10,224 bases of DNA from a virus. Lineage: Duplodnaviria; Heunggongvirae; Uroviricota; Caudoviricetes. This document shows positions 7,121 to 9,361 of the stretch, in pieces. The notes under the pieces were generated by a model. That model ran no database searches. It was given only the letters and a program-made list of their open reading frames with translations, and was not told the DNA's origin. The translations under genes were made by a program, and so were the position numbers. The DNA lies in the IMG/VR virus record IMGVR_UViG_2526164649_000017; one strand, given 5' to 3'. The first letter of the stretch is position 1. Each line of letters opens with the position of its first letter.

Positions 7121-7223
7121 GACATCAATCATCTGTTCTCCAATGACTAGTCTAAAAACTAGTATTAAGACTATCACTTAAATAAGTGATACTGGTTGTC
7201 TGGAGATTCAGGGGGCCAGTCTA
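7121..7223 (-). mobile_element. IS2 left-end fragment (about 103 bp incl. IRL), inverted
   Basis: Reverse complement reads TAGACTGGCCCCCTGAATCTCCAGACAACCAGTATCACTT...GGAGAACAGATGATTGATGTC, i.e. the IS2 left terminus through the first codons of insC; abuts IS600 copy A. Confidence 0.85.
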
Positions 7224-7729
7224 ATGATCATCAATGCATCTGTTGGAATTGCTTTGTTAAACAATAACGTCTGTACTAAATATCCTGCAAGGAAAGTCTG
7301 AATTAAACCGGAGTTACCCGCCTGACCAAAACGCAGCCCTGTTGCCAGCCAGAAGGATTTGCTCTGGAACATGCTACCAGCAGGTGCAGGTTTTGCTGTC
7401 GGTTGGTTGCTGTCGTTAACCTTCTCAAAGACCGGGCTTTCTTTCAGATTCATACGCAACCAGATAGCAAAGACCATCACGACAACGCTCGCCAGGAACG
7501 GTATACGCCATCCCCACGCCAGCAGTTCCTCTTTACTGAGAATGAAGAACATAAAGGCCCAGATTGCCGTTGCGCTTAAGGTGCCGCAGTTAGTTCCCAT
7601 AGCCACAAATGAGGAGATAATTCCGCGCTTACCTTTTGGCGCATATTCCGCCAGCATCGTACCGGCACCGGAAATTTCCGCACCTGCACCCAATCCCTGA
7701 ATAATACGCAGCGTCACCAGCAAGATGGG
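7224..7729 (-). pseudogene. MFS transporter fragment (metabolite:H+ symporter family-like), truncated at both ends
   Basis: About 168 in-frame codons with RIIQGLGAGAEISG and AEYAPKGKRG motifs resembling the MHS-family signature (compare ProP/KgtP/ShiA) and hydrophobic TM segments. N-terminal side cut by IS600 copy B, C-terminal side by the IS2 IRL. Confidence 0.7.
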
Positions 7730-7793
7730 TGAGGTAGCCTGAGTTTAACGGACACTCCTTCCTGAAATAGAATGGCATCAGAAGGAGCTAATA

Positions 7794-8097
7794 ATGAGCA
7801 GAAAAACCCAACGTTACTCTAAAGAGTTCAAAGCCGAAGCTGTCAGAACGGTTCTTGAAAATCAACTTTCGATCAGTGAAGGCGCTTCCCGATTATCTCC
7901 TTCCTGAAGGCACTTTAGGACAATGGGTTACCGCCGCCAGAAAAGGGCTCGGTACTCCTGGTTCCCGCACGGTGGCTGAACTGGAATCTGAAATTCTGCA
8001 ACTGCGTAAGGCGTTAAATGAAGCTCGCCTTGAGCGCGATATATTAAAAAAAGCAACAGCGTATTTTGCACAGGAGTCGCTGAAAAATACGCGTTAA
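7794..8097 (+). pseudogene. IS600-like orfA disrupted by a 1-bp insertion
   Basis: ATG at 7794 reads MSRKTQ...EGASRLSPS-stop because CTCCTTCC (7897-7904) has one more C than copy A (CTCTTCC). The 80-aa ORF in the track (7855-8097) is the out-of-frame remainder. Confidence 0.7.
8046..8053 (+). other. Programmed -1 ribosomal frameshift motif (A7G) of IS600-like element
   Basis: AAAAAAAG at the orfA/orfB overlap in copy B; the equivalent in copy A is plus-strand 6798-6805. IS3-family frameshifting is established knowledge. Confidence 0.6.
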
Positions 8098-8132
8098 TCG
8101 AACAATGGCGACAACAATTTCCCATTGAAGCG

Positions 8133-8951
8133 ATGTGTCAGGTATTTGGTGTATCCAGGAGCGGTTATTACAACTGGGTACAGCATGAACCCTCAGACAG
8201 AAAACAAAGTGATGAGCGGCTAAAACTGGAGATTAAGGTGGCACATATCCGCACTCGCGAAACATATGGAACCCGGCGGCTCCAGACGGAGCTGGCAGAG
8301 AATGGCATCATCGTTGGTCGTGACCGACTGGCACGTCTTCGTAAGGAGCTAAGGCTACGCTGTAAGCAGAAACGCAAGTTCAGAGCGACTACGAACCCGA
8401 ACCACAATCTGCCAGTTGCGCCAAATCTGCTGAACCAGACGTTCGCTCCTACAGCACCAAATCAGGTCTGGGTGGCGGACCTGACGTATGTTGCCACACA
8501 GGAGGGATGGTTGTACCTCGCTGGCATCAAAGATGTTTATACGTGTGAAATTGTCGGCTACGCCATGGGAGAGCGCATGACAAAAGAGCTGACAGGTAAA
8601 GCCCTGTTTATGGCGCTCAGGAGCCAGCGCCCACCTGCCGGGCTAATCCACCACTCTGATCGAGGTTCACAGTACTGCGCATACGATTACCGGGTCATAC
8701 AGGAGCAGTCTGGTCTGAAAACATCAATGTCGCGTAAAGGTAACTGTTACGACAACGCTCCGATGGAAAGCTTCTGGGGAACGCTGAAAAATGAGAGCCT
8801 GAGCCACTATCGTTTTAATAACCGGGATGAAGCCATCTCAGTAATACGGGAATACATTGAGATTTTCTACAATCGTCAGCGTCGTCACTCTCGTCTGGGG
8901 AATATCTCCCCGGCAGCCTTCAGGGAAAAATATCATCAGATGGCTGCTTAA
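8133..8951 (+). CDS. IS600-like transposase OrfB
   Basis: 272-aa ORF identical in protein sequence to the copy at 5900-6718. Confidence 0.85.
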   Translation: MCQVFGVSRSGYYNWVQHEPSDRKQSDERLKLEIKVAHIRTRETYGTRRLQTELAENGIIVGRDRLARLRKELRLRCKQKRKFRATTNPNHNLPVAPNLLNQTFAPTAPNQVWVADLTYVATQEGWLYLAGIKDVYTCEIVGYAMGERMTKELTGKALFMALRSQRPPAGLIHHSDRGSQYCAYDYRVIQEQSGLKTSMSRKGNCYDNAPMESFWGTLKNESLSHYRFNNRDEAISVIREYIEIFYNRQRRHSRLGNISPAAFREKYHQMAA

Positions 8952-8995
8952 AAAAGAACAAATGGTAGTGTCCGCTATTGCCAGTACACCTCAAG

Positions 8996-9361
8996 ATGAT
9001 TGATGTCTTAGGGCCGGAGAAACGCAGACGGCGTACCACACAGGAAAAGATCGCAATTGTTCAGCAGAGCTTTGAACCGGGGATGACGGTCTCCCTCGTT
9101 GCCCGGCAACATGGTGTAGCAGCCAGCCAGTTATTTCTCTGGCGTAAGCAATACCAGGAAGGAAGTCTTACTGCTGTGGCCGCCGGAGAACAGGTTGTTC
9201 CTGCCTCTGAACTTGCTGCCGCCATGAAGCAGATTAAAGAACTCCAGCGCCTGCTCGGCAAGAAAACGATGGAAAATGAACTCCTCAAAGAAGCCGTTGA
9301 ATATGGACGGGCAAAAAAGTGGATAGCGCACGCGCCCTTATTGCCCGGGGATGGGGAGTAA
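8996..9361 (+). CDS. insC: IS2 InsC (OrfA)
   Basis: Reads [41 protein letters not shown]... from ATG 8996. The ORF-track start 8978 is an upstream in-frame TTG inside IS600. Confidence 0.85.

Follow-up and report, generated by a model that had tools for sequence, protein, structure and literature searches.

How two pieces of the insertion sequence (IS) IS2 came to abut two copies of IS600, with the same 14 bp of IS2 at both junctions, is the question raised by a 10,224-nt stretch of viral DNA (hereafter the window; IMG/VR record IMGVR_UViG_2526164649_000017, Caudoviricetes) in which a prophage holin gene runs into a nest of IS elements. Coordinates are positions in this window, and the + strand is the strand shown. 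Our preferred answer, which we hold at somewhat better than even confidence, is one non-canonical IS600 integration in which the two strand transfers fell 14 bp apart, accompanied or followed by an inversion against an older neighboring IS600 copy.

The 14-mer AGATGATTGATGTC was present exactly two times in the window, at 7121-7134 (- strand) and at 8994-9007 (+ strand), and none of 200 dinucleotide-preserving shuffles gave any match. Alignment to an intact IS2 placed this sequence at IS2 positions 90-103, where it contains the insC ATG (92-94). Each copy directly adjoins a precise IS600 terminus, namely the left terminal inverted repeat (IRL) of IS600 copy A (7120/7121) and the right terminal inverted repeat (IRR) of copy B (8993/8994). 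The inverted left fragment corresponds to IS2 1-103 (window 7223 to 7121), and the main body extends from IS2 90 (window 8994) past the end of the window. The first junction, IS2 up to position 103 joined to the IRL, reads GAACAGATGATTGATGTC followed directly by TGAGGTAGCCTGAG; the second, the IRR joined to IS2 from position 90, reads CAGTACACCTCA followed directly by AGATGATTGATGTCTTAGG. The overlap is 14 bp, given that IS600 is present at its full 1264 bp and has TG...CA ends, and IS2 positions 90-103 are truly duplicated, since no interruption occurs in either IS2 1-103 or IS2 90-1331. The T that follows the 14-mer is assignable either to IS2 (T104) or to the IS600 IRL (T1). A sequence-only reading of the window had noted this overlap and had argued that a single simple IS600 insertion could not explain it. 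The alignment confirmed the overlap, and a canonical event with a 3-bp duplication indeed cannot yield both junctions. The features of the locus are as follows.

5696-5856, + strand: class II (essQ-type) prophage holin gene, 5' part, cut off by IS600 copy A; PF04971 (Phage_holin_2_1) was found on an identical 59-amino-acid product
5857-7120, - strand: IS600 copy A, 1264 bp, with IRR at 5857 and IRL at 7120; orfA (6754-7056) and orfB (5900-6718) intact
7121-7134, - strand: 14-bp duplication, copy 1 (IS2 103 to 90), adjoining the copy A IRL
7121-7223, - strand: inverted IS2 left end (IS2 1-103), bearing the IRL and the sequence that precedes insC
7224-7729, - strand: internal fragment of ydfJ (MFS transporter), 99.3% identity to E. 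coli ydfJ; Pfam MFS_1/Sugar_tr
7730-8993, + strand: IS600 copy B, 1264 bp, with IRL at 7730 and IRR at 8993
8994-9007, + strand: 14-bp duplication, copy 2 (IS2 90 to 103), adjoining the copy B IRR
8994-10224, + strand: IS2 positions 90-1320 (insC, insD), one mismatch to intact IS2

The order along the window is thus holin 5' part, IS600 (-), IS2 103 to 1, ydfJ middle (-), IS600 (+), IS2 90 to its end and ydfJ 3' part; the window stops 11 bp short of the IS2 end, and these bases and the ydfJ 3' part beyond them were observed in the chromosome CP024470.1.

Relatives of the locus were retrieved by exact-protein look-up of the holin::IS600 and ydfJ::IS2 fusion products. Identical gene order was found in three complete chromosomes (CP024470.1, UGYQ01000001.1 and UGYT01000001.1), all of which carry both 50-60-nt junction strings verbatim, and a short-read contig with the holin junction was also recovered. 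The window matched CP024470.1 over its full length at 99.97% identity. The plasmid CP024469.1, whose accession adjoins that of CP024470.1, is from Shigella dysenteriae BU53M1, and from this adjacency the lineage is very probably S. dysenteriae. In UGYQ01000001.1, copy A is itself interrupted by an IS911-like element (TGAAGTGGTCAACAAAAACTGGCCACC...; 10797-12040 there, near window 6491) flanked by a canonical 3-bp duplication, CAG, which shows that divergence of the strains came after the IS600/IS2 event. The arrangement was absent from complete E. coli genomes, none of which covers the locus, and the ydfJ::IS2, holin::IS600 and ydfJ::IS600 junctions gave no matches in 5,426 E. coli genomes. With ydfJ::IS2 missing from that set, the locus is private to a narrow lineage.

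IS600 belongs to the IS3 family, IS3 group. Both copies run 1264 bp from TGAGGTAGCC to ACACCTCA, with imperfect inverted repeats and TG...CA ends, and have orfA (HTH) and orfB (DDE rve) in a -1 frameshift arrangement, the open reading frames of copy A encoding 100 and 272 amino acids; Pfam HTH_Tnp_1, HTH_21, rve and rve_3 were assigned to the equivalent genes in CP024470.1. What the new junctions lack is the 3-bp target-site duplication of this element, since they have 14 bp in common. Elsewhere, the IS600 duplication was 3 bp in all eight intact copies with matching flanks (TTC, TAC, GTA, GTG, GCA, AAT, GTT and AAT; four E. coli loci). The 14 bp is a real deviation, because the eight E. coli copies, as well as IS911 in UGYQ01, give 3 bp. 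The length of the direct repeat reflects the spacing of the two catalytic centers and is 2-4 bp for IS3, IS150 and IS911 (PMC3299598). The insertion resembles a canonical IS600/IS3-family event in its complete 1264-bp element, its precise TG...CA termini and its in-register duplication, and departs from it in duplicating 14 bp rather than 3 (IS2 apart, members of the family give 2-4 bp; PMC3299598). The duplication exceeds the normal 3 bp by 11 bp, approximately one helical turn.

We examined whether the two IS2 pieces derive from one insertion. In CP024470.1, the IS2 right end continues to ATCAGTTCGATT... and then the ydfJ 3' part. Joining the reverse complement of 7224-7729 to the flank beyond the IS2 right end gave a reconstructed ydfJ of 1006 nt that could be aligned along its whole length to 1001 nt of the intact gene in over 5,000 E. 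coli genomes. The reconstruction exceeds intact ydfJ by exactly 5 nt, as expected of the 5-bp target duplication left by one IS2 insertion; the native site is GATGATCAGTTCG, and the IS2 flanks are ATCAT and ATCAG. Because the ydfJ flanks of both pieces are contiguous save for this duplication, there was one IS2 insertion. The pieces together (1-103 and 90-1331) make up a 1331-bp IS2 from the IRL, TAGACTGG..., to the IRR, ...CAAATCCA, with insC and insD; positions 1-103 differ from an intact IS2 copy by two mismatches and positions 90-1331 by one. The two copies of the IS2 target duplication (window 7219-7228; CP024470.1 locus 14536-14545) are not identical: the one beside the IRR is ATCAG, as in native ydfJ, the one beside the IRL is ATCAT, and the differing base, which abuts the IRL, is possibly a spacer base brought from an IS2 minicircle junction. 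At IS2 39-46 (window 7178-7185), the center of the IRL-proximal palindrome is TTATTTAA in place of TTAAATAA, i.e., flipped; this 2-nt variant is also present in IS2 of an S. flexneri virulence plasmid.

The segment between the IS600 copies (609 bp, comprising IS2 1-103 and the ydfJ middle) lies on the - strand. It is inverted, because the ydfJ 3' part, ydfI and the prophage genes (rem, DUF968, rusA, Q antiterminator and holin) are on the + strand. The IS600 copies that bracket it are themselves inverted with respect to each other and form a 1264-bp inverted repeat. GATG is common to the sequences beside both IRLs (GATGTC at 7121-7126 and GATGGG at 7724-7729), which lengthened the inverted-repeat call by 6 bp. 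The 14-bp duplication is split as an inverted pair, its inner member (7121-7134) beside the copy A IRL and its outer member (8994-9007) beside the copy B IRR. Such pairing of the left flank of copy A with the right flank of copy B is the pattern of an IS-bounded inversion. The 14-mers are accordingly a single target duplication that was divided, a point missed by the sequence-only reading. When the segment was flipped back, the order became holin 5', IS600 (-), ydfJ middle (+), IS2 1-103, IS600 (+), IS2 90-1331 and ydfJ 3'. The restored order is that of an IS600-mediated deletion junction, from the holin to mid-ydfJ, followed by an IS600 in IS2 between direct 14-bp repeats. We take the layout of the Qin-type prophage and ydfJ in K-12 to be collinear with such a deletion junction. 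The holin 5' part and mid-ydfJ are joined via IS600 (5857/7729) with unlike flanks, GAC versus GGG. As the join has no matching flanks, it implies that an IS600-mediated deletion, earlier than the inversion, removed the ydfJ 5' part together with the lysis and tail genes of the prophage.

Intramolecular attack by the inverted repeat-inverted repeat (IR-IR) junctions of copy-out-paste-in IS elements leads to inversions (PMC9333248). The present form of the locus is the expected product of intramolecular transposition from such a junction or circle, and homologous recombination between inverted copies gives the same product. As in the IS-bounded inversions described for IS30, IS911, IS2 and IS3, the locus has an inverted IS pair, an inverted segment and a duplication split into inner and outer members (PMC9333248), and the old junction (IRL with ydfJ) has moved to the other IS copy; what sets the locus apart is a split duplication of 14 bp, where IS600 makes 3 bp. 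A separate IS600-bounded inversion of identical topology was seen in E. coli 720632 (NZ_CP025842.1; locus 20004-24654), where it splits rdcB and dynamin-family genes and shows swapped canonical 3-bp duplications, TCA and CAC. The rearrangement as a whole is thus of a known kind, an IS-bounded inversion in nested IS elements, and its non-canonical part is the 14-bp duplication.

A history that accounts for these features would run as follows. IS2 would have entered ydfJ, and an older IS600 (copy A) would already have been present approximately 600 bp upstream, at the deletion junction that fused the Qin-type prophage holin to mid-ydfJ. A second IS600, most likely the daughter of copy A, would then have integrated into IS2, its ends joining target phosphates 14 bp apart (IS2 89/90 and 103/104) instead of 3 bp apart, and gap repair would have duplicated IS2 90-103. 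Inversion of the 609-bp segment would have accompanied this insertion, through intramolecular transposition from an IS600 circle or dimer junction, or would have followed it, through homologous recombination between the inverted copies, leaving the 14-mers as an inverted repeat with one inside and one outside the IS600 pair. New junctions located at exact IS600 termini, with a duplication in register with IS2, are the signature of staggered transposase attack and gap filling, and we infer one non-canonical strand-transfer event. The 11-bp excess would fit attack on the same face of the target at the next helical turn, or two single-end transfers that were uncoupled. In all four assemblies, the inverted isomer was the only one observed, so that insertion and inversion may have taken one step or two, and the events may have come in another order. 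The option of an aberrant event, one of three offered by the sequence-only reading, is the one that best survived testing.

The derivation of copy B from copy A was considered in light of their sequences. The two copies differ by at most one substitution and two indels, and they differ from 21 other copies at a few of 21 variable columns. Allele 308C is common to both and absent from the other three sampled S. dysenteriae IS600 copies, and in UGYQ01 the two copies are the same at both variable columns checked (298 and 308). This sharing of alleles is compatible with copy B being a local daughter of copy A. In the window, copy B has one additional C (7899-7900) that frameshifts orfA, and its terminal A-run (8950-8955) is one A shorter. 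Copy B of CP024470.1, UGYQ01 and UGYT01 has neither indel, so that the orfA frameshift is confined to the window, and the indels are either strain-specific changes or homopolymer sequencing errors.

Several points weigh against a single non-canonical integration. It is a single case, and we found no published duplication of 14 bp, or otherwise longer than usual, for IS600 or another IS3-family member. The intermediates it predicts, an un-inverted isomer and a ydfJ::IS2 without IS600, were not recovered. Allele 308C is also carried by an IS600 of an S. flexneri plasmid, which makes the sister-copy argument weak. Copy A has GTC on both sides in the orientation of the IS (GAC on the + strand; 5854-5856 and 7121-7123), one side being holin and the other IS2; this match is probably due to chance (1 in 64), yet it is unexplained. 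Finally, the Shigella chromosomes searched were these three only, and a donor allele for gene conversion may still exist.

The junctions were compared with those of IS600-in-IS2 insertions elsewhere. Had IS600 inserted canonically at either site, the partner junctions would be the IRR joined to IS2 101 onward (CAGTACACCTCA followed directly by GTCTTAGGGCC; longer string, CAGTACACCTCA followed directly by GTCTTAGGGCCGGAG) and IS2 up to position 92 joined to the IRL (GGAGAACAGA followed directly by TGAGGTAGCC; longer string, TTGGAGAACAGA followed directly by TGAGGTAGCCTGAG). Neither partner was found in the 5,426 E. coli genomes, PLSDB, the GTDB representatives or the JGI metagenomes. The survey of junction queries returned only the IRR joined to IS2 99 onward, in two plasmids of the E. 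coli genome set and five in PLSDB, two of them shared. Patterns with a variable gap gave no match in the GTDB representatives and none for the IS2-to-IRL junction in the metagenomes, where one contig contained the position-99 variant. This variant, the IRR followed by ATGTCTTAGGG, lies 9 bp from the window junction (NZ_CP148580.1, 3039-3056; gut metagenome contig, 9303-9345). At least five E. coli plasmids carry this independent junction, as does one contig from a gut metagenome; the IS600 there is broken by IS30, and the left part of IS2 is missing. IS600 was also found at IS2 187 (IS2 up to 187 joined to the IRL) in S. dysenteriae pSD1_197-type plasmids, and the reverse nesting, IS2 within IS600, occurs in S. 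flexneri and S. dysenteriae plasmids.

These comparisons bear on the alternative that two canonical IS600 hits, with 3-bp duplications of IS2 101-103 and 90-92, struck the same ydfJ::IS2 allele in two molecules (sister chromosomes, a transient tandem duplication or two related cells), after which a crossover in IS600 joined IS2 1-103 to IS2 90 onward and an inversion against copy A followed. The first approximately 190 bp of IS2 have been struck independently by IS600 elsewhere (IRR with 99 onward, IS2 up to 187 with IRL), and these insertions all have the same relative orientation, hinting at a preferred region; moreover, Shigella IS copies recombine constantly, and most IS600 copies in Shigella loci have no matching flanks. 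The scheme nevertheless needs two coexisting alleles of the locus plus a crossover, neither a partner junction nor a reciprocal product was found in the four collections surveyed, and ydfJ::IS2 is private to this lineage. We regard it as unlikely. The sequence-only reading had placed two independent insertions approximately 11 bp apart in different IS2 copies later joined by recombination. The contiguous ydfJ flanks refute the involvement of different copies, and only the version with a single allele is retained as a rival, at the low likelihood just given.

Somewhat less likely still is a canonical inversion-insertion with a 3-bp duplication, one junction of which was later replaced by gene conversion or a double crossover from an IS2::IS600 composite offset by 11 bp. 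S. dysenteriae has hundreds of IS copies, IS-in-IS insertions occur in the reference genomes (PMC7373316), and IS2::IS600 composites are present on Shigella and E. coli plasmids. No donor (IRR joined to IS2 90 onward, or IS2 up to 103 joined to the IRL) was found on 183 Shigella plasmids with a PLSDB match, including the BU53M1 plasmid, or in the 20-kb flanks of the three chromosomes. Two further events would be required, the donor insertion and a conversion tract ending within approximately 1.3 kb.

An assembly artefact, whether a collapsed or a mis-joined repeat, is very improbable. The region is built of 1.26-kb inverted repeats and the window shows homopolymer-type indels relative to the other assemblies, but both junctions recur in three complete chromosomes, one of which has copy A further interrupted by IS911 and its 3-bp duplication, and the ydfJ and holin flanks fit a coherent history; the collapsed repeat that had been suggested earlier is thereby effectively refuted.

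Four other candidates were rejected. Sequential canonical insertions on one molecule cannot, by logic, leave IS2 1-103 and IS2 90-1331 both uninterrupted. Copy A as a later canonical insertion, with GTC as its duplication, would require a prior state with a holin-IS2 junction lacking an IS end. Template switching or microhomology joining is disfavored because both junctions are at exact IS termini and the nearby GATG was not used, for which reason a transposase-made junction is preferred. Insertion targeted to inverted repeats, as known for IS911 and IS30 (single-end transfer processed by the host), similarly involves non-canonical junctions of the IS3 type formed via branched intermediates, but the IS2 target here does not resemble the IS600 ends: the sequence from IS2 104 onward matches the IS600 IRL or IRR at 5/12, 6-7/20 and 9-10/30 positions, versus 8/12, 13/20 and 18/30 at chance sites elsewhere in IS2.

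One precedent for a non-canonical integration is loosely related. Ngan et al. (2024; PMC11708052) directly observed a new copy of IS481 that has a directly duplicated 60-kb segment on each side, without the canonical 4-bp duplication (Dup-IS-Dup). The two cases are alike in that a new IS copy lies between direct duplications far longer than normal and the canonical duplication is absent, and they differ in scale, 60 kb versus 14 bp. The IS481 case was ascribed to insertion at a pre-existing break in a REP cluster, whereas the precise IS ends within 14 bp seen here fit a staggered attack.

With regard to the surrounding genes, the holin reading frame enters IS600 copy A and meets a stop codon at 5873-5875; the intact E. 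coli holin instead continues as ...ctgacatatctgac and then taacctg. Upstream of the holin, and downstream of the Q antiterminator (2476-3297), are genes for tRNA-Met(CAT) (3441-3516) and tRNA-Arg(TCT) (3618-3694). Lambdoid/Stx-type prophages usually carry tRNAs at this position, although toxin genes do not follow here. Beyond the ydfJ 3' part, CP024470.1 continues with ydfI, ydfZ, rspR (ydfH), ydfG and dcp. As the holin, ydfJ and IS2 were all already inactivated, the rearrangement has no evident phenotypic or host consequence.

The duplication is a real but minor oddity of transposition, of modest interest and chiefly to transposition specialists. For Shigella genomics, the confusing nested-IS locus of holin and ydfJ is reduced to a deletion, an IS2 insertion and an IS600 insertion with inversion. 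We suggest tentatively, at a little under even confidence, that the transpososome of IS600, or of the IS3 family in general, occasionally joins its ends approximately one helical turn further apart (14 versus 3 bp), or does so by two uncoupled single-end transfers in a local intramolecular event; IS2 positions 85-110 offer a concrete target for transposition biochemistry. Duplication length is used as a fixed signature of an IS family in annotation and in the inference of rearrangements, and a natural 14-bp case in the IS3 family shows that this signature can fail. If the proposed integration is true, the Dup-IS-Dup products of copy-out-paste-in elements would range continuously in size from approximately 10 bp to tens of kilobases.

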